A program made the translations under genes and the position numbers. From an uncultured Bacteroidales bacterium (GTDB lineage Bacteria; Bacteroidota; Bacteroidia; Bacteroidales; UBA1402): a stretch of DNA of 64,000 nucleotides. Where the stretch lies: positions 658,507 through 722,506 of the forward strand of contig OW818699.1 in assembly GCA_942493385.1 (NCBI GenBank), read 5' to 3'. Under the pieces are notes generated by a model that had not been told where the DNA came from, did no database searches, and saw nothing but the letters and a program-made list of their open reading frames with translations. This document shows, in pieces, positions 1 to 48,871 of this stretch. The stretch's first letter is position 1. The number at the start of each line of letters is the position of its first letter.

Positions 1-870
1 AAGGGTCTCCAGAAGGAATTCGGCGACAAGCGCGTTTTCAACGGACCAATAGCCGAAGACTACATCATCGGTACTGCCAATGGAATGAGCCGCTTTGACA
101 AAAAAATACGCATCGTTATTGAGGGTGCAGAGTTTGCCGATTATTTCTGGCCTGGCATTGAGCAGTTCATTGAATGTACTCACGATTACTGGCGCAGCAA
201 CGGGCAATACGTTCCAAATCTGACGGTGCGTCTTGCTTCTGGTGGCTATATTGGTGGTGGTTTGTACCATTCACAAAATCTCGAAGGAGCCTTAACAACA
301 CTTCCTGGTGTTCGCATCGTTTATCCTTCTTTTGCTGATGATGCAGCAGGTTTGTTGCGCACCAGCATGCGTTCCAAAGGCTTTACCATGTTTATGGAGC
401 CCAAGGCACTTTACAATGCGGTCGAGGCTGCCACGCCAATTCCCGATGATTTTGAGGTGCCCTTCGGCAAAGCGCGCATTCGCCGCGAAGGCGATGAATT
501 AAGCATCATCACGTATGGAAATACGACCCATCTTTGTCTCAGAGCAGCCGAACGACTCCAAAAGGAATTGAATAGGAATGTTGAAGTCATCGACTTGCGT
601 TCACTGATTCCGCTCGATAAGGAAACCATCTTTGAATCGGTTAAGAAAACAAGTAAAGTACTTATCGTGCACGAAGACAAAGTCTTTTCTGGGTTTGGCG
701 CTGAATTGGCAGCCATGATTGGTACGGAAATGTTCCAATACTTGGATGCACCCATTCAACGAGTTGGATCACCGTTCACGCCCGTCGGTTTTCACACCAA
801 TCTCGAAAAAGCGATTCTTCCGAACGAAGAAGGCATCTATAAAGCGGCACTCGAATTATTGACATATTGA
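1..870 (+). CDS. 2-oxo acid dehydrogenase E1 component, beta/transketolase-like C-terminal part (5' end lies outside the window)
   Basis: Frame 1 is open from base 1 (KGLQKEFGDKRVFNGPIAEDYIIGTANG) and runs into the 85..870 ORF. The PIAE motif and the C-terminal region resemble E1 beta subunits. Confidence 0.8.
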   Translation, partial: KGLQKEFGDKRVFNGPIAEDYIIGTANGMSRFDKKIRIVIEGAEFADYFWPGIEQFIECTHDYWRSNGQYVPNLTVRLASGGYIGGGLYHSQNLEGALTTLPGVRIVYPSFADDAAGLLRTSMRSKGFTMFMEPKALYNAVEAATPIPDDFEVPFGKARIRREGDELSIITYGNTTHLCLRAAERLQKELNRNVEVIDLRSLIPLDKETIFESVKKTSKVLIVHEDKVFSGFGAELAAMIGTEMFQYLDAPIQRVGSPFTPVGFHTNLEKAILPNEEGIYKAALELLTY

Positions 871-878
871 ATAAAAAG

Positions 879-1385
879 ATGAAAAAAATAGGATTATTTT
901 GCGGCACAAGTACGCATAAAACAGCCGCTGTGGCTAAAAAAATTCAAGAAGCTTTCGGAGAAGAAATGGTTGAACTCGTTTCGGTTGAAGACGCTTGGCA
1001 AAAAGAATTCGAATCGTACGACTTCATAATTGCTGGTGCTGCAACCTGGTTTGACGGCGAGTTGCCGACTTATTGGGATGAAATCATACCCAAACTGCTT
1101 ACCTTGAATCTGAAGGACAAGAAAGTTGCTATTTTCGGTTTGGGAGATCAGGTCAAATACCCCGACAACTTCGTGGACGGTATCGGTATCTTGGCAGAAG
1201 CCTTCATCACCACCGGTGCTACAATCGTCGGATTGACTTCCACCGAGGGTTACCAATTCAACAAATCTCAGGCAGCAATTGGCGGTAATTTTGCCGGTTT
1301 GGCCTTGGATATTGAGAACCAGCGGGACAAGTCGGATCAGCGTATACTGGATTGGGTGGAGGCACTAAAAAGAGAATTTGTATAA
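879..1385 (+). CDS. fldA: long-chain flavodoxin
   Basis: MKKIGLFCGTSTHKT phosphate-loop-like N-terminus and a GLGDQ..YPDNF motif. ATG 879 is preferred over the TTG at 867, which overlaps the upstream stop. Confidence 0.8.
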   Translation: MKKIGLFCGTSTHKTAAVAKKIQEAFGEEMVELVSVEDAWQKEFESYDFIIAGAATWFDGELPTYWDEIIPKLLTLNLKDKKVAIFGLGDQVKYPDNFVDGIGILAEAFITTGATIVGLTSTEGYQFNKSQAAIGGNFAGLALDIENQRDKSDQRILDWVEALKREFV

Positions 1386-1389: not shown

Positions 1390-2061
1390 TTATTTCGTGG
1401 CATTTTGAATGGCAGCTGCTTTCTTGGCTTTTGCGGCTTCAGAATACGCTTTATATAATGCTCTCCAATTGCGACCGTTTCCATTGAGGTACTGTTCATT
1501 CTTGGTTTTGTAAATATCAAAAATGGCTGATATCTGATTCATGCTTTTGTAGTCCACTGCGATTTCTCTGGCTTTTTTCAAATTGACGAGTATGACTTTT
1601 TCCTCCTCGGCAGTCAGATCGGTAACTATCGATTTGTAACCGTTCAAAGTAAAGGCGACCTTTCCAACAGTATACTTGTCGAGTATCAATTCCACTTGTT
1701 CTTCGGTTAGTTCCTTTCTCAAACCATCCATCAAATTCTGATGAACGGATGCAGGTTGGGACGAATCGATGATCATCTGACGATCCAAGGTGCTTAATTT
1801 ATCACCCGTACGGGGATTCATACCCTCAGGTACCAACGTATACGAATGCGTGTTGTGCCAATCGGTAATGGCCTTGAGGTGTGTGAACACAATCAGTTGA
1901 ACCCGTTGTTCTTTATCGGCGTCACTTAAATTCAGAGAAGAAACCCATTCCGTCACTTTCTTCTTCAAGGTCAGATTGGTCGAATCTGTGTTCGTAGTCT
2001 GACTTTGAATAGATGTGATTGTAAAGGTCATAAAAAGAAAAGCAACAAGTAATTTTTTCAT
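1390..2061 (-). CDS. signal-peptide protein of unknown function, helical and Lys/Glu-rich (possibly DUF3826-like)
   Basis: N-terminal MKKLLVAFLFMTFTITSIQSQ signal-like segment. The start overlaps the stop of the upstream radical SAM gene by 4 nt (ATGA at 2058-2061). Confidence 0.6.
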   Translation of the reverse strand: MKKLLVAFLFMTFTITSIQSQTTNTDSTNLTLKKKVTEWVSSLNLSDADKEQRVQLIVFTHLKAITDWHNTHSYTLVPEGMNPRTGDKLSTLDRQMIIDSSQPASVHQNLMDGLRKELTEEQVELILDKYTVGKVAFTLNGYKSIVTDLTAEEEKVILVNLKKAREIAVDYKSMNQISAIFDIYKTKNEQYLNGNGRNWRALYKAYSEAAKAKKAAAIQNATK

Positions 2062-3713
2062 ACGATTGGAGAATTAAATTTTGGATATCGGGTTAAGGAA
2101 CAAGCAGGCTGGTCTCCGTATTTGCTAAGCATAAAAAGAGCTTTTCCATAGAGGTGAATTCCAGCCAAAAGAGGAATTACTATCGGTGAAGCCAACAGGC
2201 TTACTGCAAATTGAAGCGGGAATGTCCTTGCAAAAAGAGTCGTGGTTTCTTTCCAACTTTTAGCGAAAACCTTTCCACGAATCAGGAAACGGGATGAAAA
2301 GGCCAATATGCAAACAGGGAAGATCATTTTGCGGTATTGGGAAGCCCTTTTAGCTAGAATCGGGTTGGTTTCATGCCTTAGATTCAGATACCCATTCAGC
2401 AGGTTGACGAACATTCTAAACGGCCATGGGCCACCCGTTTTAACTAGTTCGGAATAGGTGTCCGCCACAATCTCAAGCGCTTCTGAATGTGGAAAACTTC
2501 TGGATTCAAAGTTGAAATCGACAATACCGTCGGTCTCAAATTGGTAGTTTTCAGGAATTCTGTTCGACTTTTTCATTTGTTCCCAGAGAGCAGTTCCTGG
2601 AATAACGTGCAGTGGAATGGACTGATAAAAGGTCGGATTCAGCGCAATAAATCGAGTGGAATCGGCCTGAGCCATTGCTTTGCTTTGGTTGTCCCAACCG
2701 ACAATCAACGAGCCCAACGTATTGATGCCGTTGTCATGCAACCGCTTGAACAACAATTCGATGTCACTTTTGCGTTTGACCAGACCCTCGTTTGCGAGTA
2801 CTTCATCACTGAGGGATTCCACTCCGATAAAAATGGTGCCGATGCCGCAAGCGATTAATTCTTCGGTGGTGAAGTTGTTTACCGAACGGGCAGAAGCGAA
2901 GATGGTCAGTAGGAACGTGCGTTCCGCCAATGGGGATTCACTGAACAGTTTGATGAATTCCAGCACTTTGGGTCGATTGATCAGAAAATCTTCTTCGTAG
3001 ATGACTGCCGACTTTACCCCTGGATGCCGATTACTTTGTTTAACAAGGTTGTCAACCAAATCCTTGCTTCCAAATAAGGGGATGTATCGTTTGTTGAACA
3101 GGCTGGAAGTGGCACAAAAGGAACATCCGTACACACAGCCAAGTCCTCCGACCACGATGAATTGATTGAACAAATTAATTCGTGTCCTGAAAAGACTGTT
3201 GGTGGTTGGCAGCAAGTCCTGTGTCAGCGGTTTATTGTTTTCGATGCCCCATTTTTTGTAAATAAGATCGTTCATGAATTCCATGCCTTCGCCGTAACAA
3301 ATGTGGTGGACAAGGCTTTTCAATCGAACGGAAACATCGTATTCTTCCGTGAAAATGGCTGTTCCATAACCGCCTACCACGATTTCAACGGAAGGATGTT
3401 CTTCTCTGATCCATTCTGCCATTTCAAGTACCTTTCCAGACAGAAGAATCGTAAAACCAATGGCCACGATATCGTAATGACCCTTTCTGACTTCCTTTTT
3501 AAATCTGCTTTCTGAAGGGTTTTCGAGAACGACCGAATCCACCGCCACGTTTTGAGCCAAAAAATGCAGTGAATGCCAACTTTGGTAGGACCGTAGCTGA
3601 AAAACACCTTGCTTGAGGGTATTCCGATAGTAAAAATAATCGATTGGATCTTTTTCGACCGGTAGTTTCCTGTATTTACCCCAAGGGGAAGTAAATAAAA
3701 TTTTTGGTCTCAT
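2058..3713 (-). CDS. B12-binding domain radical SAM enzyme with hydrophobic C-terminal tail
   Basis: Rossmann-like N-terminal region (DIVAIGFT...VVGGYGTA), then a CxxxCxxC motif (GCVYGCSFCATSS). The last ~95 aa contain long hydrophobic stretches (FPVCILAFSSRFLI, LQFAVSLLASPIVIPLLAGIHLY). Confidence 0.8.
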   Translation of the reverse strand: MRPKILFTSPWGKYRKLPVEKDPIDYFYYRNTLKQGVFQLRSYQSWHSLHFLAQNVAVDSVVLENPSESRFKKEVRKGHYDIVAIGFTILLSGKVLEMAEWIREEHPSVEIVVGGYGTAIFTEEYDVSVRLKSLVHHICYGEGMEFMNDLIYKKWGIENNKPLTQDLLPTTNSLFRTRINLFNQFIVVGGLGCVYGCSFCATSSLFNKRYIPLFGSKDLVDNLVKQSNRHPGVKSAVIYEEDFLINRPKVLEFIKLFSESPLAERTFLLTIFASARSVNNFTTEELIACGIGTIFIGVESLSDEVLANEGLVKRKSDIELLFKRLHDNGINTLGSLIVGWDNQSKAMAQADSTRFIALNPTFYQSIPLHVIPGTALWEQMKKSNRIPENYQFETDGIVDFNFESRSFPHSEALEIVADTYSELVKTGGPWPFRMFVNLLNGYLNLRHETNPILAKRASQYRKMIFPVCILAFSSRFLIRGKVFAKSWKETTTLFARTFPLQFAVSLLASPIVIPLLAGIHLYGKALFMLSKYGDQPACSLTRYPKFNSPIV

Positions 3714-3719
3714 TTTTTT

Positions 3720-5018
3720 TTAAGTGCTGGTCGTTCTTATAATATGATTGAACCGAACATAGATCATGAAGTTCATTAGGTTTTTCATGTTGGTGTTTGG
3801 CTCGAATAGGCGCGAAGCAATGGAGGGGATTCCGTAAAATTCCTTGTTGGCTTTCATGGTAGCTTCACTTAATTGTTCTGGGGTCATGTTTTTTGGGATG
3901 AACGTTGCCATGTTGTAGCGGTAATCGGGATGATTCCACCATTCACCATTAAACAACAGCCGGTTTTCCGCTTTGAACTGATCGTACACTTTCGTTCCTG
4001 GATAGGGCATCAGTATGTGAAAGTAGGACAGGGCGAATTTGTTCTTGATGGCAAACTCCATCGTCTTTTCCAGGCTTTCCAAGGTGTCAAAATCGTTGCC
4101 CATGATAAAGCTGGCCCAAGTCATAAAACCATAATCGCGCAGAATTTCAATTGCTTCCGCGTAATTGTTGAAATCGCGAACGTTGGGCGATTTGTTGAAC
4201 CAATCCAACGAATTGATGTTGATGGACTCGAAGCCAATCAGGTTGCCAACACAGCCGCTGTCTGCCATCAATTGCAACAATTCCTTGTCTTTCACCATGT
4301 TGATGCTCGTTTGACTGGCCCATTTTACCTTCATGGGCGCTAGTTCCTTCAAGAATGTTTTAAGTTCCTTTTTGTCGGTGACCATGTTGTCGTCCACAAA
4401 CAAAATGGTTTTCAACTTGTTTTCGTCAATTTCCTTTAATACCTCTTCCCAAGGACGACAGTGGTAGGCTTTGTTGAAAAAACGTGAAACGGAGCAGAAG
4501 GTGCAATTGAAGGCACAACCTCTGCTGAATTGTACCAAGGAGATGGGTAAATATTTTTTCCCTTTGAAAATGCTTCGATCCGGGCTGCAATTTTCCTGAG
4601 GAATACCGAATGTACCTTGATAGACCTTTTGCAAGCTTGAGTTTTGGAGGTCTGTCATCAATTTCGCCCACACTGGCTCAGCATCTCCGATAACGATGGC
4701 ATCCGCATAGTTCTGGGCCTCATCGGGGAGTAACGAAACGTGCATTCCACCGAGTATGACTTTTACGTTTCGTTTACGGTATTCATCAGCAATCTGATAC
4801 GCTCTGCGTGCATTGAAGGTATCGACGGTGATGCATACCAAGTCGGTGTGACGTTCATACGGAATGATTTCCAGTCGGTCGTCGTACATGACTTTAGTAT
4901 CCGGGTCTTTTATCAAGCCAGCCAGAATGGCTAACGGCATGGGTTCCATACTTCCGTCATTCAGGCGGAATTCCTTATTGGCCTCACCCAAACTGGGTTT
5001 TATCAGTGTTATATGCAT
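3720..5018 (-). CDS. B12-binding domain radical SAM enzyme
   Basis: N-terminal B12-like region (LVCITVDT...VILGGMHVS) and CxxxCxxC (RGCAFNCTFCSV). The C-terminal region resembles the DUF4070-type extension. Confidence 0.85.
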   Translation of the reverse strand: MHITLIKPSLGEANKEFRLNDGSMEPMPLAILAGLIKDPDTKVMYDDRLEIIPYERHTDLVCITVDTFNARRAYQIADEYRKRNVKVILGGMHVSLLPDEAQNYADAIVIGDAEPVWAKLMTDLQNSSLQKVYQGTFGIPQENCSPDRSIFKGKKYLPISLVQFSRGCAFNCTFCSVSRFFNKAYHCRPWEEVLKEIDENKLKTILFVDDNMVTDKKELKTFLKELAPMKVKWASQTSINMVKDKELLQLMADSGCVGNLIGFESININSLDWFNKSPNVRDFNNYAEAIEILRDYGFMTWASFIMGNDFDTLESLEKTMEFAIKNKFALSYFHILMPYPGTKVYDQFKAENRLLFNGEWWNHPDYRYNMATFIPKNMTPEQLSEATMKANKEFYGIPSIASRLFEPNTNMKNLMNFMIYVRFNHIIRTTST

Positions 5019-5042
5019 AATGACAAGGCTTTAAGTGAATAA

Positions 5043-6365
5043 TTAGAAAATATTCGGCGTGATTTTTTTCTTGACATACGAACGGTAGTGAAAATTCACC
5101 CCCAGGGAAAAGAGCCACATCTCGGGATTCTTCCAAAGTTGTCGATTGAAAATGACCCGATGGAAGATGCTTTTGAGTGAAAAGACTTTGTTGTTGAGCC
5201 ACCAATACATTTCGGTGAGCTTGTCCGGATCAATCTTTTTCGGGATGTGCACGCAGCGAGTTCCGTCAAACAAGCGAAGGTCGTCGGTGAGCATTCGGCC
5301 TTGACTTTTCAACTCTTCATGCAAAGCAGTGCCGGGGATTGGTGTGAGGATGTAAAACCGAGGGATGGGCACCCTGTTCCGATAGATAAAGTCGTAGGTG
5401 TCCCGAATGGATTGCTCAGTGTCGTAATCCGTGCCTACAATCATTTCGGTACTGACTACGATGCCAGACTGTGTGAGAATCTTCATGTTCTCCTCATGTT
5501 CATCGGCTCGGAGCCAGGTTTTGTCGAGGCTGTCAATAGCGTCTTGTTGAATGCTTTCCACACCGAAACTCATGATGTCACAGCCGGAATCCCTCACTAT
5601 TTTAAGTAATTCGGCGTTTTTGGCAAGATGGATGGCGCACTGGCTGGCCCATTTCATTTTGAGGGGTGTGATTTTCGCGCAAAGTTCCCGCAGGTATTTC
5701 GGATTGGAAACGATGTTGTCGTCAATCAAGTAAAAGCGGTTGTAACCGAGTCTCTTTACTTCCTTGATGTCGCGTATGACCTCATCAACTGGACGAAAAA
5801 TGTATTTCCCTTCGTACAGACAAGCAATGGAACAGAACGAGCAAGTGAAGGTACACCCGCGGCCTGCCTGGACTGGCAACATCAAGCCAATTTTCTTGGA
5901 GGTGAGCAATTCGTACCGAGGTATCGGAAGGTTCTTTAGTTCCGATACCGGATTTTTGTACATGGGTTTGACCTTCCCGGTTGTTTCAAAATCATGCAAC
6001 AACATGGGGTAAGATATTTCTGCATCCCCTACAACGACAGAATCCACATGCTTCATGGCTTCTTCAAACTGGATGGAAGCCATATAACCACCCATAATGA
6101 CTATTTTACCCCGTTTTTTGAACTCCGCTGCAATCTCTAGTCCACGAAAAGTGGCATGCCCCATGGTCCCGATGGCTATGATATCGGCATCGGAGTTGTA
6201 GTCAATCTCGTCAACCACCTCAATGAGCAATTCCACGGTCCAATTCGATGGGGTATACGCCGCCAACAAGGGGAAGGCAAGACCGGGAAGGTTGATTCTT
6301 TTTTGCTTGCAAAGCTTGCCGCTCACAGCATATTGCGTTGGTTGTATGAATAGGATCTTAGGCAT
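5043..6365 (-). CDS. B12-binding domain radical SAM enzyme
   Basis: IIAIGTMG...VIMGGYMAS followed by GRGCTFTCSFCSI. Start chosen at MPKILFIQP (ATG 6365), which overlaps the upstream stop by 8 nt (ATGCCTAA). The ORF-track start 6425 is an in-gene extension. Confidence 0.85.
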   Translation of the reverse strand: MPKILFIQPTQYAVSGKLCKQKRINLPGLAFPLLAAYTPSNWTVELLIEVVDEIDYNSDADIIAIGTMGHATFRGLEIAAEFKKRGKIVIMGGYMASIQFEEAMKHVDSVVVGDAEISYPMLLHDFETTGKVKPMYKNPVSELKNLPIPRYELLTSKKIGLMLPVQAGRGCTFTCSFCSIACLYEGKYIFRPVDEVIRDIKEVKRLGYNRFYLIDDNIVSNPKYLRELCAKITPLKMKWASQCAIHLAKNAELLKIVRDSGCDIMSFGVESIQQDAIDSLDKTWLRADEHEENMKILTQSGIVVSTEMIVGTDYDTEQSIRDTYDFIYRNRVPIPRFYILTPIPGTALHEELKSQGRMLTDDLRLFDGTRCVHIPKKIDPDKLTEMYWWLNNKVFSLKSIFHRVIFNRQLWKNPEMWLFSLGVNFHYRSYVKKKITPNIF

Positions 6366-7728
6366 GTTTTCTGGCTTCTTTGATTTTTTTCTTGTACTGT
6401 TTTGCAACGCGTCCCCCGCCGGCAATCATTTTCCAAAGCAAGGTCGGTCGATAAGTGGTCAAATAACGCCACATCACTTTTGGTTGGTAAAGGATGGCAC
6501 TGTAGGCCTTGAGTATCTCCTGATAAAATTCAGGCACCGTCATTTTTTCCGGCTGAACGCTGATGTGAGCCAAATCCCATTTCTCATAGTCCTTTCTGGA
6601 AATGAGAAGCTGATCTTCGGGGTAGCTCACTTCGGTTTTTGGTAGGGGTGTCAACGGTTGAAGGTTCACATATTGGATGCCCAAAGATTTGACCACCGTC
6701 ACCATGTTCTTGAAATCGGATCGATCCCATTCGGGAGGGATGATGATGGTGGCGAAAACATCGATGTTGTCGCGTTTCAATACGGCCATGGTTTCAGCAT
6801 ACATGGCTACGGAGGTGTTTTTGTTGTACTTGGCCAATTCTTTGTCCGAGAAACTCTCGAAACCGACAATGACGGTTTTGAGTCCGATTTCGGCCATTTG
6901 GTGTATGATTTCGGGATTTCCTGCGATGAAATCGGCCCGTCCGTAAACCAAATAATGTTTGTGGATGTTCCGCCTTTTCACCTCATCGATAAACGATTGC
7001 AGGTATTTCCGATCAGCCAGAAAGTCGTCGTCCACGATGTAGATCTCTGTTTCGTGAATCCCCTCCAGCTCCTCCATGACTTCAGCAATAGGCCGCTGAT
7101 AATAAGCGCCATGGGTGATGACCCTGCAAAAACAAAAGGAACATTGATAGGGGCAGCCAAAGGAGGCTTTGAGCAATGCCACTTTCTCATGAAAGATGTA
7201 GAAATACTCCGAACGGTAATTGGAGACGGAGCTTCGATCGGGAATGGGTACCCGAAAATCGAAGGCAGGAAGGCTATACGTTTCCAACGTGTCTTCGCGT
7301 TTAAAAATTCCTTTAGGTAATTCTCGGCCGAACTCAATATGGTTGAGCAAATCGGTAAAGGTCACCGAAGCGTTGCGAACAACCCTGAAATCGATCGATT
7401 CGTCCTCGAAATCTTCTGGACAGACTTCGCAATGTACGCCACCGACAATGGTTTTGACGGAGGGAAGTATTTGTTTCGCTTTCTGACAATAATCGACCAT
7501 GATGCCCACGTTGGTAATGTATCCGGTCAGGCAAAGGACGTCCGGTTGATGTTTTTTTAGAAACCATTCGAAGGACTTTTTTTCCAGAATCAGATCGATG
7601 ATAATCGCGGAGTCCGAATCGCGTTTCAAGGTATATAGGATTTCCAGCTCCAGAGGTTCTACAATCATCACATGCTGCAAACCAATGGTTTCGGGAGAAG
7701 GTTTGGGTCGTACCAGAAGTATTTTCAT
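6358..7728 (-). CDS. B12-binding domain radical SAM enzyme
   Basis: MKILLVRPKP...CLTGYIT...IVGGVHCEV followed by SFGCPYQCSFCFC. There is a 4-nt start/stop overlap with the upstream gene. Confidence 0.85.
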   Translation of the reverse strand: MKILLVRPKPSPETIGLQHVMIVEPLELEILYTLKRDSDSAIIIDLILEKKSFEWFLKKHQPDVLCLTGYITNVGIMVDYCQKAKQILPSVKTIVGGVHCEVCPEDFEDESIDFRVVRNASVTFTDLLNHIEFGRELPKGIFKREDTLETYSLPAFDFRVPIPDRSSVSNYRSEYFYIFHEKVALLKASFGCPYQCSFCFCRVITHGAYYQRPIAEVMEELEGIHETEIYIVDDDFLADRKYLQSFIDEVKRRNIHKHYLVYGRADFIAGNPEIIHQMAEIGLKTVIVGFESFSDKELAKYNKNTSVAMYAETMAVLKRDNIDVFATIIIPPEWDRSDFKNMVTVVKSLGIQYVNLQPLTPLPKTEVSYPEDQLLISRKDYEKWDLAHISVQPEKMTVPEFYQEILKAYSAILYQPKVMWRYLTTYRPTLLWKMIAGGGRVAKQYKKKIKEARKHA

Positions 7729-8729
7729 GGGTTTGGTTTAAAGGCATTCGTGTTCTCAAGGTTGCGTTTGTAGGCCAGCAAAGGACTGGCAAAAATAAGC
7801 AATCGATTAAAGAAACGGTTGCTGTGGTGTGCTTGCATGTACAAGGTTTCGGGCAAACCGCCCATTCTCATTTTGGCGATTTCAGCCGTTTGGCCGAGTT
7901 CAATAATTTTAGCGTGTTTATCGATACCATCTCGAACCAATTGAGCGAGTAAACGAAGGTAGGTGTTGTTGGTTTTGTTCTGCTTGTAATTGATTCCTCC
8001 AAGAAAAAAGTAGTACGTTTCCTGATGCTCGAGTGCCAGGTTCCAACCAATCAACGCTTCATTCTTGTAACAAGCGGTCAGGATGAATTCCTCCGGCAGG
8101 TTTCTGAAGAAGTCAAAACTGAGTTTTTCCAGTTTGCCGTCACTTCGTTGGTATACTTCCAAATATTGATCGTATAGGAGTGTCGTGAAGCTGGAGCAGG
8201 TCATCTTGGCCAGTCGTAGGGTTGGATCCGCTGCGTTTACTTGTTTGAGTCGCCGACGATAGCCAGTGCGCAATGCGTTTTCATAACTTTTCCAATCGGC
8301 AAACTTGTTGGAAAGAACGATGGTCGGCAAGGTGCATCCTGTTGCATGCTCCTGGTTTGCAGGCTTTTCTGTCAAATTCAAAAAGACCAGCAGCCCTTTC
8401 TCTTTTTCGATGAGGTGCTTTTTCAAGGCTTCAATCGATTCGCGTTCTCCAAAAATGCCGGAACTGGAAACGGAGCAGGGTATGCCTACCAAGTGCATTT
8501 TCAAGGGGCTTTTGATTCGGAGGTAGGTGAGCAGGTCGAGTCGTAGGGTGTAAACAATGGCGGCAGAAGTGACCATTCCTTCTTTTAAGCATACGTAATA
8601 GCGCTGATCACACGGATTATAGCGTTCAGCATGTATCAAAAATTTCCGTTGTTGAAAATAGTGTTCCGCCAGGTTGTCCCAAGATTCTGGAAGGGCGGCG
8701 GCGCTTTCTATTTGAAGGAAGGTCGTCAT
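7725..8729 (-). CDS. FemAB-like / Acetyltransf_6-type GNAT superfamily protein
   Basis: The C-terminal half (YYFFLGGINYKQNKTNNTYLRLLAQLV...IIELGQT) resembles FemAB/BioF2-like acyltransferases. Judged by eye only. Confidence 0.55.
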   Translation of the reverse strand: MTTFLQIESAAALPESWDNLAEHYFQQRKFLIHAERYNPCDQRYYVCLKEGMVTSAAIVYTLRLDLLTYLRIKSPLKMHLVGIPCSVSSSGIFGERESIEALKKHLIEKEKGLLVFLNLTEKPANQEHATGCTLPTIVLSNKFADWKSYENALRTGYRRRLKQVNAADPTLRLAKMTCSSFTTLLYDQYLEVYQRSDGKLEKLSFDFFRNLPEEFILTACYKNEALIGWNLALEHQETYYFFLGGINYKQNKTNNTYLRLLAQLVRDGIDKHAKIIELGQTAEIAKMRMGGLPETLYMQAHHSNRFFNRLLIFASPLLAYKRNLENTNAFKPNP

Positions 8730-9817
8730 TTGAGTTGGGTTTCAAACGTTGCGTACTGTCTGTAAACCTCTGGATAACTCCCATAACTTCGTTTCAGAAG
8801 TCGATTGACAAAAGCCATGGATGCCAGGTTCTCTTCAAAAATGAAACCGCCTTCGCAGTATTCATAGCCATTGGAACGGACTGCCGGAAGTGCTTTGCTT
8901 AGCATGGCCAATGCTACGGAACTTCCTTGATATTCAGGAATGATGCCGATTTCTGTGAATCGATAGGCATTCGGTGTTTTGCCGAGTCGGTATCGAATCA
9001 CATCGAAGAGATTCAAATCACGCGAACCGGATACCAGTTGGTTGAAGTCGGCATACCATAGGAAAAAGCCCACAGGTTTGCCGTGAACCTCTGCAAATAT
9101 CAGGTTTTCATTATCCAGAAGGAATCGGAACGGGTAAAACAGATCCTGATCTTCTTCCGAATCACGTTTTGCCCAATAAGGGTGTTTCAAAAACGACTGG
9201 TTATTCAACTGAGTGTAAATGGCACTTTCCTCCTTGATCCGTTTCTTGTCCATGAAACGGACTGTCAAGCCATCGATGGGTCTGTTTGAAGCATAGGATC
9301 CAGCCCAAGCGGCATATACGTCCATTCGTAAACGAAACGTGAACATTTTACGGCATTCCAATTGACTGAAATAACCTGAGTAGTATTCCGGATTGTAAGG
9401 AAGTCCAAATACCGGAGGTTCGTCGAAGCGGTTCAGCAGGATGCCGGCACCATAGTTCAAGTGTCCGTTAAGGCCGACAACGACTTTGTTGCATTCGGGA
9501 AAATGGATTCGGATTTCTTTTTCGATGTATGCATAGAGGTCGCCAAGATTCGGCTGAGCTTCAAAAAAAGAAACCTGCACGTATTCTGCCAACCAAAAGT
9601 CGTGTATGAGTGCAAATCGGGCTACCAGGTCGTTTCCATCGCGAACGACGAACTTCAGAATTTTGGAGTGTTTGTTGAAAGCGCTTTCACCCTTCAGAAG
9701 CAAATGCTCCACACTGGTTTCTGTTCCTCGGAAATACGGATTTCCACGGTAAACATCGGCTTTGACTTTTTCAAAGGTTTTGTAGGCCGACTGTCCTTCC
9801 AACAATTCTGTCGTCAT
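8726..9817 (-). CDS. GNAT-like N-acyltransferase, double-domain type
   Basis: The C-terminal region IGIIPEYQGSSVALAMLSKAL...GGFIFEENLASMAFVNRL resembles GNAT motif A. There are 4-nt overlaps with both neighbouring genes. Confidence 0.5.
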   Translation of the reverse strand: MTTELLEGQSAYKTFEKVKADVYRGNPYFRGTETSVEHLLLKGESAFNKHSKILKFVVRDGNDLVARFALIHDFWLAEYVQVSFFEAQPNLGDLYAYIEKEIRIHFPECNKVVVGLNGHLNYGAGILLNRFDEPPVFGLPYNPEYYSGYFSQLECRKMFTFRLRMDVYAAWAGSYASNRPIDGLTVRFMDKKRIKEESAIYTQLNNQSFLKHPYWAKRDSEEDQDLFYPFRFLLDNENLIFAEVHGKPVGFFLWYADFNQLVSGSRDLNLFDVIRYRLGKTPNAYRFTEIGIIPEYQGSSVALAMLSKALPAVRSNGYEYCEGGFIFEENLASMAFVNRLLKRSYGSYPEVYRQYATFETQLK

Positions 9818-10962
9818 TCGATAAAATATTGTTCGGGTTTCGGAAAACCTAGAAATTGCATGTAGGAGGAGGCAGAATAAGAGCCGGCATTACCATAGAC
9901 GAGGATGTCACCTATGTGCAATTCAGGCAATTCCACTTCTTTGGAGAAAATATCGCGTGAATATGTGGAACAGCCGTAAACGGTGGTCGGAATGCCGGAT
10001 GTGTGGCGCATTTGTTCGCCGTTTCTGATGACAACAACCGGATGCCTGGCTGTGTCCGGATACATTAATGGCCTCGGAAATTGCACTGTTGAGGCGTTTA
10101 CTCCAGCCAGTAATTGCTGAGGCCTTTTTTTGATGTCGGTGACGCAACAGACAAAATATCCAGATGTGCCACCAATAATTCGGCCGGGTTCCAACATCAA
10201 TCGGATGCTCCTGCCGGACTTTTCCGAAAATTCATTCATCAGTTTGGTCACCGCTTCATCGTACGCCGAGATGTCAAAATGATTGTCTCCGTTTTCTGCT
10301 ACTCCGAAACCTCCACCAAAGTTCAAGTATTCGAGGTCGGGGAAGTCTAATGCCAATGCGATCAACTCTTTGTAGCAGGCTTTGAAGTAGTCGATGTCCA
10401 CAATGTCGGTGCCAACGTACAAATGCAAGCCTTTTACGAACGACTTGTCCGATAAATTATCCAATTCGGTTTCAGTGAATCCAAGTCTGCTTTCCTTGCC
10501 AATAAATGAACCGGCATGGTTGGAATAGGGTTTTACGCGATCGCCGATGTTGCAGCGTATTCCGACCCGTTTTTTGGGATACAATCTTTTCCATTGTTCC
10601 AGTTGGCTTGGTGAATCCAGATTGACCTGCACGCCATAGGATTCAATCCGTTTCATAGTCTTCTCCGTTAGTGCAGAAGAAGTGAAAATGATGTCATGTC
10701 CGCTGAAGCCTGCCTTTGTAACCTCTTCCAGATGGATGAGCGAGTTTACGAAGACATTCAACTTTTCCTCTTTGACTACTGCCAGAAACTCTGGATGGAC
10801 ATTGGCCATGGAGGCAAAATGGATGGACTTGTTGGGATAGGTGATTTGCCTGAACATACGGCATTTGGTTCTGATTTGCTCTTTGTCATAGACGTAAAAT
10901 GAATCAAATTCCTGTTCAGTATGGCTGTTTATGAAAGTGAGAATTTTGGATTCCAGGATCAT
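9814..10962 (-). CDS. Orn/DAP/Arg decarboxylase-fold (fold type III PLP) protein with a non-canonical lysine site
   Basis: NFGGGFGV, LEPGRIIGG and VYGCSTYSRD motifs. The N-terminal signature reads FASMAN where family members have F/Y-A-x-K-A-N. Start at MILESK (10962); the ORF-track extension to 11268 overlaps the divergent symporter gene. Confidence 0.8.
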   Translation of the reverse strand: MILESKILTFINSHTEQEFDSFYVYDKEQIRTKCRMFRQITYPNKSIHFASMANVHPEFLAVVKEEKLNVFVNSLIHLEEVTKAGFSGHDIIFTSSALTEKTMKRIESYGVQVNLDSPSQLEQWKRLYPKKRVGIRCNIGDRVKPYSNHAGSFIGKESRLGFTETELDNLSDKSFVKGLHLYVGTDIVDIDYFKACYKELIALALDFPDLEYLNFGGGFGVAENGDNHFDISAYDEAVTKLMNEFSEKSGRSIRLMLEPGRIIGGTSGYFVCCVTDIKKRPQQLLAGVNASTVQFPRPLMYPDTARHPVVVIRNGEQMRHTSGIPTTVYGCSTYSRDIFSKEVELPELHIGDILVYGNAGSYSASSYMQFLGFPKPEQYFIE

Positions 10963-10977
10963 ATGTTTGTTTTTGTT

Positions 10978-10985
10978 CAAAAGTA
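10978..10985 (-). promoter_or_regulatory. candidate Bacteroidota -7 box (TACTTTTG) for the radical SAM operon
   Basis: TAnnTTTG match on the minus strand, 16 nt upstream of the ATG at 10962. Confidence 0.4.
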
Positions 10986-10990
10986 TGGTA

Positions 10991-11030
10991 CCAAATGTAG
11001 GTTTTTTTGAATGAATCAACCTACATTTGG
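10991..11030. promoter_or_regulatory. perfect 13-bp inverted repeat (CCAAATGTAGGTT N14 AACCTACATTTGG) in a divergent promoter region
   Basis: The arms at 10991-11003 and 11018-11030 are exact reverse complements. Each arm carries an outward-facing TACATTTG (TAnnTTTG) box. Confidence 0.55.
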
Positions 11031-11047
11031 GACAAACTTTTGTAACC

Positions 11048-13059: not shown

Positions 13060-13428
13060 TCAAGGAGCCGGATTCATAGCTTGATAGGAGATGGTATTGT
13101 AATTTTTCTGATAGAAATCGGTTGGTATAATCTCAAAAGTGATGTCCAGTGTTGCGTTTTCTGTTAGCGTTGGTAGTGAATAGTGGTTTTTCACCAACTC
13201 TAGTGTTACGTCAGAGCCATTTAAAAGGATACTATTGACATTAATAATGTCAAGTATTTTGAAGTAAATACTGATTGTTCCGTCAATTTCGTTTACTTGT
13301 TTAAAGCTTCCATTCTCTGACTGAAATGTCAAATACACCCGTTTGGGAGAAACATCTTTTCCAGACACCACATTTGGCATGCAAACGAGCAGAAATGAGA
13401 ATAGAATCTGAAAGTAAGTAGTTCGCAT
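13060..13428 (-). CDS. small signal-peptide protein, unknown function
   Basis: Start at MRTTYFQILFSFLLVCMPNVVSG (13428). A TACCTTTG box lies at 13463-13470 on the minus strand, 35 nt upstream. Confidence 0.45.
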   Translation of the reverse strand: MRTTYFQILFSFLLVCMPNVVSGKDVSPKRVYLTFQSENGSFKQVNEIDGTISIYFKILDIINVNSILLNGSDVTLELVKNHYSLPTLTENATLDITFEIIPTDFYQKNYNTISYQAMNPAP

Positions 13429-13462
13429 TTTTTTTAAGTAAAAGAATATCATTGTAATAGAA

Positions 13463-13470
13463 CAAAGGTA
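13463..13470 (-). promoter_or_regulatory. candidate -7 box (TACCTTTG)
   Basis: TAnnTTTG match upstream of the 13428 start. Confidence 0.4.
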
Positions 13471-13537
13471 AGGCTGTCCCACTTCCATTTTGTTACATGT
13501 TTTTTCATATGAATTGCATGTTTCATACTTTTCAATC

Positions 13538-13545
13538 TATCTTTG
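13538..13545 (+). promoter_or_regulatory. candidate -7 box (TATCTTTG)
   Basis: TAnnTTTG match 27 nt upstream of the GTG at 13572. It lies inside the ORF-track extension that starts at 13497. Confidence 0.4.
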
Positions 13546-13571
13546 TGCTTCTTGCAACTGTCGAACCTATC

Positions 13572-15428
13572 GTGAAAAAAATATACACCCTTCTAATTGG
13601 ATTATCCCTGTGCATGGCTTTACAGGCCAGGCAATTGTATTTGTCGCCAACAGGTCAGGACTTCAACGACGGCCTATCGCCTGACCATGCCTGGCAAAGC
13701 CCAAATACTGCCTTTCAAACACTGGTGGCTGGCGACACGCTATGGGTGAGCGGAGGTACGTATACCCTAGGTGCCACGGTGAAATCAAAAAACGCAGGGA
13801 CATCCACTTCTAAAATCAAGGTACTAGCCATTCGGGGAGAAAGACCCGTTTTCGATTGCTCATCGTTTCGGAACTATGGAACAGAAAGTTCCACCTATCG
13901 GGGAATGGATCTGCGTCAAGCATGGTGGCTGGTGCGTGGAATCAAAATCTATAAAGCCGGCCACAACGGCATCATCATAGCTGGTGAAAACATAACGGTA
14001 GAAGGCTGTATTGTCGAAGAATGCGGGCACGACGGCATCTCCATCGGTGCGGGTTCAGTCAATGCCAGAATCGTAAATTGTGATTCCTACCGAAACGTAG
14101 AGGCTTTAAGCAATGGAGAAAACGGCGACGGATTTGCAGCCAAGGAGGGTACGGGCACTATCTTTAAAGGTTGCAGAGCTTGGGAAAACGGGGATGATGG
14201 TTGGGATGTATATGGCGGAAACCAACCTGTTTTGGTGGACAGTTGTTGGTCTTGGGGTAATGGCGTGAACTATTGGCCAGCCTACATAACCAGTTATCAA
14301 GGTGACGGAAACGGCTTCAAACTAGGTGGTGGCGGAGGTGTGGACGGCAATGCGCCCAACGTGGTTCTACACAGTTTTGCCTTCAACAATGTGGGCAAAG
14401 GATTCGACCAGAACCACAATGCCTGGGGCGTGACATGCATCAATTGCACCGGTTACAATAACAATGGCTTGGGTAACTTTGCATTCAATGAAGTGCCGGC
14501 TCAAGGCAAACATGTGATGAAAAATAACCTTTCCTATGGAGGAACCGGACAGAATATTGCTGTCGGTAGTACGGAAACCACCAATAGCTGGAACCTTGGG
14601 CTAACTTTCACTGATAACTTATTTGAAAGCTTGAGCACAGTCGATGCGAAGTTGCCCCGCGATGACGATTATCGGCTTACGGATGCAAAATTGCAGGCCC
14701 TTTTTCGCTTGAAGTACGGTAATCCGGCAATTGACAAAGGTACCGTTCAGACATACCTCCTTTTGAAACCGTATTTTGCCATTCCATATTCCGGAAGCAA
14801 ACCAGACCTTGGCGGTAAGGAATTCGACGCGGGTAATTGGACGTTCCCTTTGCCCGATGAAACCCAACCGATCGATACCTCTGGTACGGTTGGTGGCGGA
14901 ACACGACCTTCTGGCATACAACAGCTTGTAGTCGATGCAGCTACGCAGTTCACTGTCAACTCCGGGGGTGGCGTCTCCTCGATTTGGGGGCCGTTTTCGT
15001 TGGCATCCTCGCTTTCGGCGGTCTTTGACATGCAGGCGGTGGGTTCTTCCAGCGGTGCTGTTATCCTGCAATATTCCAAAGACATGGTCGTTTGGGAACA
15101 AGTCGGTGCACAAGCCAAAAACGGAAGCACGAGCTGGGTTACCAACAAAGCCATCGATTTGAGTGCCGAAACTGTTCCTTGGGGGCCTGCCGTTTATATC
15201 CGATTCATCAATAACTCCACCAACAACGTCAACCTTAAGAACTTGAAGATTTCAGCCACCGTTTATACGGCTGTTTCAGTGCAAAATCCCAAAATGGAGG
15301 AGGTTTTAAGCACACAGTATTACAATTTGCAGGGGCAGAAAGTGGATATGAACCATCGAGGTTTTTTGATTCGAAAAGTCCTCTACGGTAACCGTAGTAC
15401 ACAGCTATTCAAACAATTCAACAAATAA
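13572..15428 (+). CDS. right-handed beta-helix (pectate lyase-like) protein with T9SS C-terminal sorting domain
   Basis: GTG start gives VKKIYTLLIGLSLCMALQA, a signal peptide. Repeated NGDGF / GDDGWD / GDGNGFKLGG beta-helix motifs. The C-terminus YYNLQGQKV...GFLIRK resembles a T9SS CTD. Confidence 0.7.
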   Translation: MKKIYTLLIGLSLCMALQARQLYLSPTGQDFNDGLSPDHAWQSPNTAFQTLVAGDTLWVSGGTYTLGATVKSKNAGTSTSKIKVLAIRGERPVFDCSSFRNYGTESSTYRGMDLRQAWWLVRGIKIYKAGHNGIIIAGENITVEGCIVEECGHDGISIGAGSVNARIVNCDSYRNVEALSNGENGDGFAAKEGTGTIFKGCRAWENGDDGWDVYGGNQPVLVDSCWSWGNGVNYWPAYITSYQGDGNGFKLGGGGGVDGNAPNVVLHSFAFNNVGKGFDQNHNAWGVTCINCTGYNNNGLGNFAFNEVPAQGKHVMKNNLSYGGTGQNIAVGSTETTNSWNLGLTFTDNLFESLSTVDAKLPRDDDYRLTDAKLQALFRLKYGNPAIDKGTVQTYLLLKPYFAIPYSGSKPDLGGKEFDAGNWTFPLPDETQPIDTSGTVGGGTRPSGIQQLVVDAATQFTVNSGGGVSSIWGPFSLASSLSAVFDMQAVGSSSGAVILQYSKDMVVWEQVGAQAKNGSTSWVTNKAIDLSAETVPWGPAVYIRFINNSTNNVNLKNLKISATVYTAVSVQNPKMEEVLSTQYYNLQGQKVDMNHRGFLIRKVLYGNRSTQLFKQFNK

Positions 15429-15494
15429 TACGGTTTGCAGAGATTCTATTCCATATTTGAATGATTTGTCGCAGTGGTTTTCTTTGGCAAAGAA

Positions 15495-15502
15495 TACCTT
15501 TG
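15495..15502 (+). promoter_or_regulatory. candidate -7 box (TACCTTTG)
   Basis: TAnnTTTG match 20 nt upstream of ATG 15522. Confidence 0.45.
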
Positions 15503-15521
15503 TACTTCAAATAAATCATAC

Positions 15522-29395: not shown

Positions 29396-31045
29396 TTATC
29401 TATTATTTACTAACCTGCTTGTTTTCAGATAGATGGCTGAAGTTATAATATCCTGCCATTGCAGGACAGAACTTTTTTCAAACTGAAGTTGATAGAGTTG
29501 ACCTTTTGAGTGGTAGAGCTGCAATTTATTATTGCTCTCTGTGGTTGCGGAATTAATGTCTGAAAACAGAAAGGAACAAGTTCCCTGATTATTCTGACAA
29601 ACAATGCGGTCTTCTGTCAAACGCAAATGACCCGTAAGTACAGGTTCGAAAACGATGCCATGTTCCATAGACAAGTTGCATATGCCCGACTCGTGCAAAT
29701 CAACTAAGAATTCATTTTTCTCAAGGTTCGCATCTGACTCATAAAATAAGTTGTCGTCGGCTGTAACCCGGATGGATTTATAGTATTCGGCTATTGACAT
29801 TTGTTTTAGGATTTCTTTCTTTTGAAAGCTAATAGACAAGTCATCAGCAATATGTATGGAAAAGCCGCATTTCTGACAAGTCAAATTGTTTTCCTTTGGT
29901 ACAAAAGAATTAAACTCAAAACATTCTGAACATCGGTAAAATACTTTCTCAAGTCCTTCACCTATACCCTTAATTCTGGGGGGGATTTTTTCAGCCTTTT
30001 CGGAATCACCCAACCGTTTAAGGATGCTATTCTCCAATTCCTCCATCGTGAAATCCGAATTCGCAAAGAACGGTTCTTTAATCTCTAGGACTACTTTGTA
30101 CCTTCTGAAACCTTTTGCCCATCGAGGCCAAGCAGCATAATTCCCTTGAATTTTTACCGGTACGATTGGGATATCATTTTTTTTAAGCAACAATTTCAAT
30201 ACCTCTGGTTTGAAATGTTGCGTTTCTCCAGTCCAGGATCGTTCGCCTTCCGGGAAAATGCCTATGACAGCACCTTTATCCAATGCTTCAAGCATTCGTT
30301 TATTTAAGCCGAAATCAGGCTTGAATCGCTTTCTGGGTATATTGCTGAGCAATTTCATCAACTTGATCATAAAAGAAGACCGAAACATTTCGTAGGTAGT
30401 GAGATAAGATATTGGATGTTGAATTGCAAATCCAATTAAAATGGGGTCGGAATAATTTTTGTGTTCGGAAATTACAAAATAGGGCGGCGATAAAGGTATA
30501 CGCTCTTTGTGTCGGATTTGGAAATGGTATAACAGTTTCATTAACAACAGTCCCGGATACCGTAACAATTGATATAAGATAGGAAATACTAGCCCTGTAC
30601 GGTTCTTGTAATAGAGGTAGGCTTTTCCAAACCGTTTGGTGAGTAGCTTTTCTTCGTAGTGGATGTAAAGCCATGTAAGTAACGTGAATGCAGGCAAAAC
30701 AATCAGTAACATCGCTTTAGAGCCTAGAATCAAGGCTATGCCAAAAAAGGAGCTAATGTAGAATAAGTAGATTGGATGGCGCCAATAGTTGTAAACTCCA
30801 CGGCGTAGGATCGTTTTGGGTGGATAGGCCGATACCGGTAGTTCACCACTGTATTTGAAATATTGAACAATTGTAATAAACAGTAATGGGGTTGATAACA
30901 GCAGCACGATGATCCCAGCAACTGGATGTGGTGAAAACCCTGATTCCCAAAGTATTTCAAGACGACTTGAGCCAATTAGGATTAATGCAGGAATAATGCC
31001 CCAGAATACGATAATGTAACTTAATATGGTTGATATTTTCCTCAT
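29396..31045 (-). CDS. fusion protein: ICMT/PEMT-like membrane methyltransferase domain + PlsC-type acyltransferase + CxxC..CxxC zinc-ribbon C-terminal domain
   Basis: N-terminus: GVYNYWRHPIYLFYISSF...YIHYEEKLLTKRFGKAYLYY (ICMT-family signature). Middle: ISEHKNYSDP (HX4D), FPEGERS, IPIVPV. C-terminus: YRCSECFEF...LTCQKCGF. Confidence 0.75.
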   Translation of the reverse strand: MRKISTILSYIIVFWGIIPALILIGSSRLEILWESGFSPHPVAGIIVLLLSTPLLFITIVQYFKYSGELPVSAYPPKTILRRGVYNYWRHPIYLFYISSFFGIALILGSKAMLLIVLPAFTLLTWLYIHYEEKLLTKRFGKAYLYYKNRTGLVFPILYQLLRYPGLLLMKLLYHFQIRHKERIPLSPPYFVISEHKNYSDPILIGFAIQHPISYLTTYEMFRSSFMIKLMKLLSNIPRKRFKPDFGLNKRMLEALDKGAVIGIFPEGERSWTGETQHFKPEVLKLLLKKNDIPIVPVKIQGNYAAWPRWAKGFRRYKVVLEIKEPFFANSDFTMEELENSILKRLGDSEKAEKIPPRIKGIGEGLEKVFYRCSECFEFNSFVPKENNLTCQKCGFSIHIADDLSISFQKKEILKQMSIAEYYKSIRVTADDNLFYESDANLEKNEFLVDLHESGICNLSMEHGIVFEPVLTGHLRLTEDRIVCQNNQGTCSFLFSDINSATTESNNKLQLYHSKGQLYQLQFEKSSVLQWQDIITSAIYLKTSRLVNNR

Positions 31046-42627: not shown

Positions 42628-42628
42628 A

Positions 42629-44797: not shown

Positions 44798-44808
44798 AAT
44801 AATTGGGC

Positions 44809-46260: not shown

Positions 46261-46270
46261 CACCAGAGCC

Positions 46271-47530: not shown

Positions 47531-47532
47531 TC

Positions 47533-48867: not shown

Positions 48868-48871
48868 AAGC

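Follow-up and report, generated by a model that had tools for sequence, protein, structure and literature searches.

A radical SAM-rich putative tailoring cassette, mainly of Bacteroidota, with a decarboxylase-fold protein that lacks the Schiff-base lysine

In a 64,000-nucleotide stretch of the genome of an uncultured Bacteroidales bacterium (GenBank assembly GCA_942493385.1, contig OW818699.1, positions 658,507 to 722,506 of the forward strand; hereafter the window), a run of minus-strand genes, designated g1 to g8, contains a real and uncharacterised biosynthetic operon, for which a product is given neither by a curated family or solved structure nor by a paper. Its conserved core, g1 to g5, is a tailoring cassette rich in radical S-adenosylmethionine (SAM) enzymes. 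The unusual and more widely relevant part of the cassette is g1, a decarboxylase-fold protein without the lysine that forms the Schiff base with pyridoxal 5'-phosphate (PLP). The reading that we favor, with about even confidence, is that the cassette aminoacylates, N-acylates and repeatedly C-alkylates an amine derived from an amino acid.

The g1 protein has a triosephosphate isomerase (TIM) barrel followed by a C-terminal sheet domain, as does LysA, and matches PF02784 (79 bits) and PF00278 (49 bits), both above the cut-off. It does not reach the cut-off of the LysA model TIGR01048 (169.2 bits against 297.9) and scores 102.5 bits against a cut-off of 478 with TIGR03099, the PEP-CTERM/exosortase-associated decarboxylase. 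In alignments to three diaminopimelate decarboxylases of solved structure (2yxx, 1knw and 2qgh), a methionine of g1 (HFASMAN) stands opposite the Schiff-base lysine (FAVKAN / FAQKAC); the lysine in question is K54 of the E. coli protein, in the motif AxKA, and is absent from g1. Among the 40 orthologues that cover this site, the column holds Met in 38 and Gln in 2. The segment GCSTYSRD, invariant in the orthologues, aligns with GxxCESGD, so that Thr-Tyr replaces the catalytic Cys-Glu. The orthologues nevertheless keep GGG, EPGR, the phosphate-binding Tyr, the His of HxH and RPxxY, all invariant or nearly so, and the invariant motifs indicate strong purifying selection. Judged by its residues, g1 would keep a PLP-type pocket yet be unable to form an internal aldimine. 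The label of PLP-fold protein in the initial annotation thus holds for the fold, but g1 is not a canonical PLP decarboxylase. A conserved Lys six residues before the Met was considered as a substitute and rejected: it is Arg in one orthologue, and its inferred position is at the opposite end of the first barrel strand.

Direct reading of the sequence reproduced the coordinates of all eight genes in the initial annotation (Table 1), and the chosen start codons give proteins identical to those encoded on a 4.12-Mb contig of a public NCBI assembly. The ATGA overlaps at 9814-9817, 8726-8729, 7725-7728 and 2058-2061 were verified, as were the 8-nt overlap of g4 and g5 (ATGCCTAA, 6358-6365) and the two gaps of 24 and 6 nt, and the description of the genes as one co-oriented, translationally coupled unit stands. 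Inspection of the open reading frames (ORFs) of the window revealed no further coding ORF that fits within the operon, and the absence from it of nonribosomal peptide synthetase (NRPS) or polyketide synthase, glycosyltransferase, transporter and precursor peptide was likewise borne out. The base composition of the operon is not distinct from that of its flanks.

Table 1. Genes of the operon and the adjoining divergent intergenic region (positions within the window).
Feature	Coordinates	Strand	Description
g1	9814-10962	minus	382 aa; Orn/DAP/Arg-decarboxylase fold (DAP, diaminopimelate) without Schiff-base lysine
g2	8726-9817	minus	363 aa; tandem-GNAT N-acyltransferase (putative)
g3	7725-8729	minus	334 aa; FemX-like double-GNAT protein, putative aminoacyl-tRNA-dependent aminoacyl transferase
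g4	6358-7728	minus	456 aa; B12-binding-domain radical SAM, g4/HpnR-like subfamily; core
g5	5043-6365	minus	440 aa; radical SAM with B12-like N-domain, g5 subfamily; core
g6	3720-5018	minus	432 aa; B12-binding radical SAM, g5 paralogue; accessory
g7	2058-3713	minus	551 aa; divergent radical SAM with C-terminal membrane helix; accessory
g8	1390-2061	minus	223 aa; DUF3826, signal-peptide-like N-terminus; local passenger
g1/symporter intergenic	10963-11047	none	divergent region between g1 and a Na:alanine symporter gene

Scanning one genome per species (185,579 species) yielded 59 loci, which together with two that were looked up, one of them a duplicate, make 60 non-redundant loci. Across these, g1 is present in 39, g2 in 54, g3 in 57, g4 in 56 and g5 in 53; g6 occurs in 17, g7 in 7 and g8 in none. 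The core g1-g2-g3-g4-g5 recurs in constant order and with mostly overlapping junctions in about 60 species-level genomes, so that the operon is not an orphan as first described, and its unit is the five-gene core rather than eight genes, g6 and g7 being accessory and g8 never found with the core. The full g1-g7 form was found in five genomes, including the isolate Saccharicrinis sp. FJH62. An extra g4-type paralogue (X) is present in 14 of the 60 loci, with up to three copies in one of them (L063), and a class I SAM methyltransferase of 205 aa in 12. Most carriers are Bacteroidota (including Bacteroidales, Saprospiraceae and Chitinophagaceae), joined by a few Ignavibacteria, Krumholzibacteriia, Spirochaetes and Armatimonadota. 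The g5 protein is the most conserved, at 52-90% identity across loci with one outlier at 39%. The g3 family has 297 relatives in a large protein collection, the few named ones all from Bacteroidota (for example Paludibacter, Prolixibacteraceae and Saccharicrinis), and g3 of the window is 63-66% identical to the closest of these, from Paludibacter.

The order and overlapping junctions of g1 to g5, repeated in dozens of independent genomes, are far beyond chance. Only cassette genes, extra g4-type radical SAM genes and the 205-aa methyltransferase recur among the neighbors of the related loci; the flanking genes otherwise vary by genome, which makes the cassette self-contained. It is conserved, mobile and laterally transferred. 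Synteny across genomes thus holds for g1 to g5 and not for g8 or the symporter gene, and three clues to the product that had been drawn from the window fall away with it: the exported DUF3826 protein g8 as a sign of an envelope product (0 of 60 related loci), the divergent alanine/glycine symporter as a sign of amino-acid supply (not conserved with the cluster), and the hydrophobic tail of the last radical SAM enzyme, g7, which belongs to an accessory protein and is not a property of the core. The g8 protein matches PF12875 with 220 bits and no NCBIfam model, and it stands beside g7-type proteins of a close relative on one contig of 21,935 bp. To the idea that the genes are unrelated neighbors, or that g1 is a housekeeping lysA amid miscellaneous radical SAM genes, we give practically no weight: public annotations do name g1 relatives 'diaminopimelate decarboxylase', but gene order and overlaps are kept across phyla, and g1 lacks both the catalytic lysine and the Cys-Glu pair and stays under the lysA cut-off.

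The loss of the lysine extends well beyond the cassette. A full HMMER search of 1.84 billion representatives returned 4,732 relatives of g1. Among the best 150 of these, the site column holds Met in 67, Lys in 51, Phe in 6, Val in 5, Ile in 1 and Ala in 1, and 19 are fragments that do not reach the site. Within the same 150, the canonical C-E-[ST]-x-D motif occurs only with Lys at the column; in the Met class its place is taken by G-x-[ST]-T-[YF]-S-x-D or by further non-canonical forms.

Gene neighborhoods of the family were sampled at 87 loci (80 from a metagenome scan and seven on looked-up contigs, near-duplicates included). On six of the seven looked-up contigs, which include Hymenobacter perfusus, Vicinamibacterales and Rhodospirillaceae, the distant Met-type gene directly follows a gene for a B12-domain radical SAM protein of about 680 aa. 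For the 59 Met-type loci with upstream sequence, a strict test placed a radical SAM gene directly upstream in 36 and elsewhere in the locus in 12, with none in 11; at least two of these 11, listed ORF by ORF, do have a partial radical SAM ORF. The Lys-type (LysA-like) loci of the same scan had a radical SAM gene in 0 of 18; near-duplicate loci mean that the events counted for the Met and Lys types are not independent of one another, yet the two types differ clearly. In sequence, the ~680-aa partners come nearest to the g5/g6 subfamily (78-101 bits), with g5 as their closest relative in the window. A g5-type radical SAM gene also lies directly upstream of g1 itself in another form of the present cassette (L041, L043, L102-104, L121-126).

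Five of the seven looked-up contigs share the order SnoaL-like, QueA-like, PqqD (in three of the five), SPASM radical SAM, B12 radical SAM and Met-type gene, followed in three of the five by a CPBP-type protease. At the level of single loci, a cassette of SnoaL_3-like, QueA-like (PF02547), PqqD (where detected), SPASM radical SAM, ~685-aa B12 radical SAM and lysine-less genes, often with a CPBP (Rce1-like) protease gene, is seen in L064, L066, L067, L069, L070, L078, L079, L083, L084, L087, L089, L093 and L094; it appears to be undescribed. The genes that come after it in L066 (TonB receptor, PepSY_TM, SCO1/SenC and a PCuAC-like gene) hint at a copper-related peptide. Locus L065, from a Vicinamibacterales metagenome-assembled genome, has the pair of B12 radical SAM and lysine-less genes followed by genes for an NRPS condensation-domain protein, a carrier/thioesterase protein, an amino-acid permease, a penicillin amidase and a member of the TauD family; here the pair may make a non-proteinogenic amino-acid building block. 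Two Met-type lysine-less proteins are fusions, one with a spermidine synthase domain (P0282, 707 aa) and one with a class I SAM methyltransferase domain (P0287, 731 aa), which suggests that the family is linked to SAM-derived aminopropyl or aminocarboxypropyl chemistry.

One general explanation of this linkage would be that lysine-less g1-type proteins are dedicated partners of B12-type radical SAM enzymes. With no internal aldimine of its own, the g1-type protein would bind the substrate by its alpha-amino-acid end, as a PLP aldimine, while the partner would abstract a hydrogen from a neighboring unactivated carbon and alkylate or rearrange it. We put this forward tentatively and consider it unlikely in this full form. 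If true, it would define a three-cofactor system (PLP, cobalamin and Fe-S/SAM) operating across RiPP-like, NRPS-like and stand-alone cassettes (RiPP, a peptide synthesized ribosomally and modified post-translationally).

The RiPP-like company of other lysine-less relatives (PqqD, SPASM radical SAM, CPBP-type protease) also bears on whether the cassette itself modifies a macromolecule, be it a RiPP with an unrecognized or distant precursor or a cellular protein that is aminoacylated, acetylated and methylated. B12 radical SAM enzymes do methylate peptides and proteins (PoyC, Mmp10), FemX-fold L/F-transferases aminoacylate proteins, and g5 scores 93 bits with the RiPP enzyme model ApyD. Against this, no PqqD or other recognition element, protease or precursor is present in or beside the cassette, the flanks vary between genomes, and every RiPP family score is far under its cut-off. 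Pfam detected no PqqD-type domain in any cluster protein, and among the 39 loci with g1 no small ORF upstream of g1 is conserved beyond close relatives. We consider modification of a macromolecule very unlikely.

All four radical SAM proteins, g4 to g7, contain the CxxxCxxC motif, in the forms GCPYQCSFC, GCTFTCSFC, GCAFNCTFC and GCVYGCSFC already listed in the initial annotation, and match PF04055 above its cut-off of 29.5 (60.2, 56.7, 63.6 and 40.2 bits, respectively). They are strongly divergent, as had been noted, with pairwise identities of 21-29%, and fall into two subfamilies, the g4 type and the g5/g6 type (g6 and g5 share 29% identity, 192 bits), with g7 apart. The Rossmann-like cobalamin-binding N-terminal region that had been ascribed to all four is solid for g4 and g6, which pass the PF02310 cut-off of 32.1 (49.6 and 33.9 bits). 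For g5, which stays below it at 20.9 bits, the region is supported by profile comparison with g6 (hhalign probability 99.7%; g6 with g4 97.5%, g5 with g4 65%). The support is weak for g7, which has no PF02310 match and whose N-domain aligns with that of g4 at 30% probability and E 5.5e-4. No protein of the operon reaches the cut-off of any NCBIfam model. The best matches are HpnR (TIGR04367) for g4, over its full length with 174.4 bits and a cut-off of 650, PhpK and ApyD for g5 (about 94 bits; cut-offs 600 and 750), and BchE for g6 (104 bits; cut-off 481). The closest solved chain to g5 is AprD4 (PDB 6fd2, E 1.4e-10). Membrane segments are not predicted in g1 to g5; among the radical SAM enzymes of the operon, g7 alone is membrane-anchored, through a hydrophobic segment at about residues 497-530 that all five orthologues retain. 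In the X paralogue, the C-terminal tail is hydrophobic by eye; a window scan found no such segment at its C-terminus. A search with PADLOC found no anti-phage defense system, only weak, generic radical SAM matches (at most 35 bits, candidate model PDC-M51A), and a role in defense is the less likely for it.

The assignment of two GNAT-superfamily proteins, one of them FemAB/FemX-like, was supported by Pfam and by structure models. The g3 protein matches PF13480 marginally (23.2 bits, cut-off 22), and its structure model (mean predicted local distance difference test score, pLDDT, 89.6) has the double-GNAT FemX fold. The best PDB matches of the model are Weissella FemX (E 2e-10, template modeling (TM) score 0.57), the aminoacyl-tRNA-dependent peptide synthases Sbb17/Sba18 (TM 0.63), FemA and the synthase domains of MprF, the top matches FemX, Sbb17/Sba18 and FemA lying at E 2e-10 to 2e-8. 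At the sequence level, a profile of the g3 family found no solved structure in the PDB at E<=1, and g3 found nothing in NCBIfam at E<=0.01, TIGR03019 (the FemAB protein of the PEP-CTERM pair) included. We regard g3 as a putative FemX-like aminoacyl-tRNA transferase. The g2 protein matches PF00583 (23 bits, cut-off 20.7) in its C-terminal half, residues 213-339, and no NCBIfam model. Its AlphaFold model (mean pLDDT 77), which contains a poorly modeled or disordered insert at 117-140, best matches the glucosamine N-acetyltransferase 5kf1 (E 2e-12), MAB_4324, a clavulanate tandem GNAT and MshD; the fold matches comprise 5kf1, 7q3a, 2wpw and 1ozp, and a histidine acyltransferase is also among them. 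These best matches are tandem GNATs that depend on acyl-coenzyme A (CoA), and g2 is a putative N-acyltransferase of this kind. A recent duplication as the origin of g2 and g3 was rejected, the two being not detectably related by profile comparison.

FemX, the best structural match of g3, acts on UDP-MurNAc-pentapeptide, and g1 keeps the LysA-type RPxxY, which binds the distal end of DAP. One could therefore suppose that the cassette modifies a peptidoglycan precursor, with g3 extending the stem peptide, g1 recognizing DAP and the radical SAM enzymes alkylating the stem. Such a function is hard to reconcile with the rarity of the cassette, found in 59 of 185,579 species genomes, and with its mobility, and the variants that lack g1 argue against a central recognition of DAP. 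The mur/fts genes of the window lie about 32 kb off (42602-55915) and are not linked, and no case in which a radical SAM enzyme alkylates a peptidoglycan precursor is known to us. We find this explanation highly improbable.

A lipid product deserves more attention. The cassette might tailor membrane lipids, using a lipid head-group amine or a fatty-acyl donor, with the radical SAM enzymes methylating or coupling lipid carbons as HpnR, HpnP and the tetraether enzymes do. HpnR, the hopanoid C-3 methylase, is the closest curated family to g4 (174 bits), but this score lies far below the cut-off of 650. The C-terminal membrane helix of g7 is conserved and the tail of X looks hydrophobic, but the core has no membrane segment and these membrane-anchored proteins are accessory (7 and 14 of the 60 loci). 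Similarly, the aminoacyl-phosphatidylglycerol synthase domain of MprF is another structural match of g3 (E about 1e-7, TM about 0.5), but for both g2 and g3 the proteins matched best have soluble substrates. An exporter is absent from the cassette, and in Saccharicrinis FJH62 a Lipase_3 gene follows the cluster; on the other hand, no lipid-synthesis gene is conserved beside the cassette, no hopanoid genes recur among the neighbors of the related loci, and a 2026 review of lipid-modifying radical SAM enzymes contains nothing of this composition. We therefore regard lipid tailoring as possible but rather doubtful. The envelope or lipid product proposed in the initial annotation can still be entertained, and is not favored over a soluble amine-derived metabolite.

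Under the preferred reading, the aminoacylation, N-acylation and C-alkylation of a small amine, the substrate would be a primary metabolite that bears an amine and either contains an alpha-amino-acid moiety or derives from one. The g3 protein would attach an aminoacyl group from aminoacyl-tRNA, and g2 would cap the amine with an acyl or acetyl group from acyl-CoA, following the ligate-then-acetylate logic of MshC/MshD in mycothiol synthesis. The g4 and g5 enzymes would carry out radical chemistry, chiefly methylation, at unactivated carbons, and g1 together with a g5-type radical SAM enzyme would act on the alpha-amino-acid end, held in the PLP-type pocket without an internal aldimine. Decoration would then be varied by g6, g7, the extra g4-type paralogues and the class I SAM methyltransferase; the occurrence of several g4-type paralogues and of an accessory SAM methyltransferase agrees with a methyl decoration that varies. 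In support of this reading, small amines are the substrates of the proteins that g2 and g3 best match in structure. An amino-acid-derived scaffold that is acylated and then alkylated had been proposed from the outset; the support once sought for it in the symporter is gone. Starting from what is documented above (the structure and coupling of the genes, their conservation, the folds, the lost lysine and the linkage of the g1 family to radical SAM genes), we infer all of the substrates, the order of steps, the use of cobalamin and PLP, and the dependence on tRNA.

Several observations weigh against the preferred reading. A variant g3-g4-g5-g2' without g1 occurs in seven loci, so that g1 is not essential to the core chemistry, and the g1 gene of the window has no radical SAM gene beside it. 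The CoA site of g2 is atypical: the family consensus YQRSPVA (YQxSxVA) keeps the Q and the A of Q/RxxGxG/A, with the central Gly replaced. The fold matches of g2 and g3, at 10-13% identity and TM of about 0.55-0.63, indicate the fold class only and not the donor. The solved protein most closely related to g5, AprD4, is a dehydratase and not a methylase; it has a B12-like domain yet is not known to use cobalamin, and the B12-like domains predicted here do not prove cobalamin use either. The hydrophobic tails of g7 and X fit a membrane substrate better than a soluble one. Finally, no transporter or regulator was identified, and no substrate can be deduced from sequence.

The surroundings of the operon are those of an ordinary chromosome, with a methionyl-tRNA synthetase gene and, at 42602-55915, a run of cell-wall genes, two scanned members of which encode a penicillin-binding protein and a Mur ligase. 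Rfam searches of both strands of the whole window gave nothing at the gathering score, whether tRNA, riboswitch (cobalamin or SAM) or small RNA. Counts from a scan for sigma-70 promoters and terminators did not exceed those in shuffled sequence, and such a scan is ill-suited to Bacteroidota promoters. An element resembling TAnnTTTG, the -7 promoter element of Bacteroidota, is present about 17 nt upstream of the g1 ATG (TACTTTTG). Within the 85-nt divergent region between g1 and the symporter gene lies a 29-nt inverted repeat that is imperfect overall (10975-11003 / 11018-11046) but perfect over a 12-bp core (CCAAATGTAGGT / ACCTACATTTGG), a 12-mer found at only these two sites of the window; the repeat could be an operator or hairpin common to both divergent promoters.

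At the other end of the operon, a flavodoxin gene (867-1385, plus strand) runs convergently, with 4 nt between its end and that of g8. Radical SAM enzymes usually receive their electrons from flavodoxin; the gene is not recurrent beside the cassette in other genomes. The operon also adjoins pectate-lyase-like and lectin-domain proteins with sorting tails of the type IX secretion system (13497-18290 and 19980-21980), and a DUF362 protein of the window matches the same sorting domain just under the Pfam cut-off. The cassette of Saccharicrinis FJH62 likewise sits amid pectin-degrading genes (rhamnosidase, GH28 and Pel9A-like; L001 1494-7604 and 18053-19585), a setting that may reflect shared ancestry of the region rather than function. 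Elsewhere in the window, a membrane methyltransferase domain of the PEMT/ICMT type and an acyltransferase domain of the PlsC type are joined in one 549-aa protein (29396-31045, minus strand), an unusual fusion whose substrate may be a phospholipid. A 1102-aa ORF (56040-59348, plus strand) has no Pfam match at E<=1e-5, and a 142-aa ORF (13060-13488, minus strand) has none at E<=0.001.

Searches of NCBIfam, the PDB sequence set and part of the literature returned nothing that describes this combination of genes or the lysine-less family, in agreement with the earlier view that the combination matches no characterised pathway. The same partial literature contained no lysine-less DAP-decarboxylase homologue paired with a B12 radical SAM enzyme, which is not proof of absence. 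The cassette is compact and self-contained; its two to five radical SAM enzymes are joined by two amide-forming enzymes, a scaffold synthase being absent, and such a set probably makes an unrecognized, heavily C-methylated amine or aminolipid from primary metabolites. It has spread among mostly uncultured anaerobes of sediments and wetlands; the cultured carrier Saccharicrinis sp. FJH62, with g1 to g7, makes experiments feasible. Beyond the cassette, a large family annotated as 'diaminopimelate decarboxylase' cannot work as one, so that a widespread annotation is corrected, and in genomes the genes of this lysine-less family are tied to those of radical SAM enzymes, the majority of which have B12-binding domains. 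Radical SAM enzymology thereby gains a testable idea, that of a PLP-fold partner protein.

Each component of the cassette can be set beside characterised systems. With LysA, BtrK and carboxynorspermidine decarboxylase, g1 has in common the two-domain fold and the retained GGG/Tyr, EPGR, HxH His and RPxxY; unlike LysA, it has Met for the lysine and Thr-Tyr for Cys-Glu, and its family is tied to radical SAM genes. A mechanistic analogy for g1 and a B12-domain partner, one not backed by evidence of homology, is provided by lysine 5,6-aminomutase and ornithine 4,5-aminomutase. These enzymes combine a TIM-barrel PLP site that has no Schiff-base lysine of its own with a B12 Rossmann module, and their radical chemistry takes place on an amino acid bound as a PLP aldimine; in the g1 system, the radical initiator would instead be a radical SAM enzyme.

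The N-terminal B12-type Rossmann domain and CxxxCxxC core are common to g4 to g6, the class B radical SAM enzymes (HpnR, BchE, PhpK, ApyD, TokK, CysS) and AprD4, and the presence of several paralogues per cluster recalls iterative or regiospecific methylation systems. The differences are that no curated cut-off is reached, that g7 has no clear B12 domain, and that g4 to g7, unlike the known class B systems, are not accompanied by hopanoid, phosphonate, chlorophyll or RiPP genes. As for the acyltransferases, g3 has the double-GNAT fold and a length similar to those of FemX/FemAB and of Sbb17/Sba18 from streptothricin-type pathways, but at 10-13% identity, a TM of about 0.6 and no sequence-level match to a solved structure. 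The tandem-GNAT fold of g2, with the GNAT motif in its C-terminal half, is that of MshD, glucosamine N-acetyltransferase and MAB_4324, from which g2 differs by very low sequence similarity, the atypical CoA motif and the insert at 117-140. The pairing of g2 with an amino-acid-adding enzyme parallels MshC/MshD.

The sinefungin pathway differs in that its aminoacylating enzymes are PEARLs where the cassette has the FemX-like g3, in its organisms and remaining genes, which are unrelated, and in that its cluster has, according to its authors, no proteins predicted to use PLP (bioRxiv 10.64898/2026.05.21.726688). It nonetheless offers a conceptual parallel to the cassette: a free amino acid is the substrate of a B12-dependent radical SAM enzyme, and the small-molecule product is then aminoacylated by tRNA-dependent enzymes (bioRxiv 10.64898/2026.05.21.726688).

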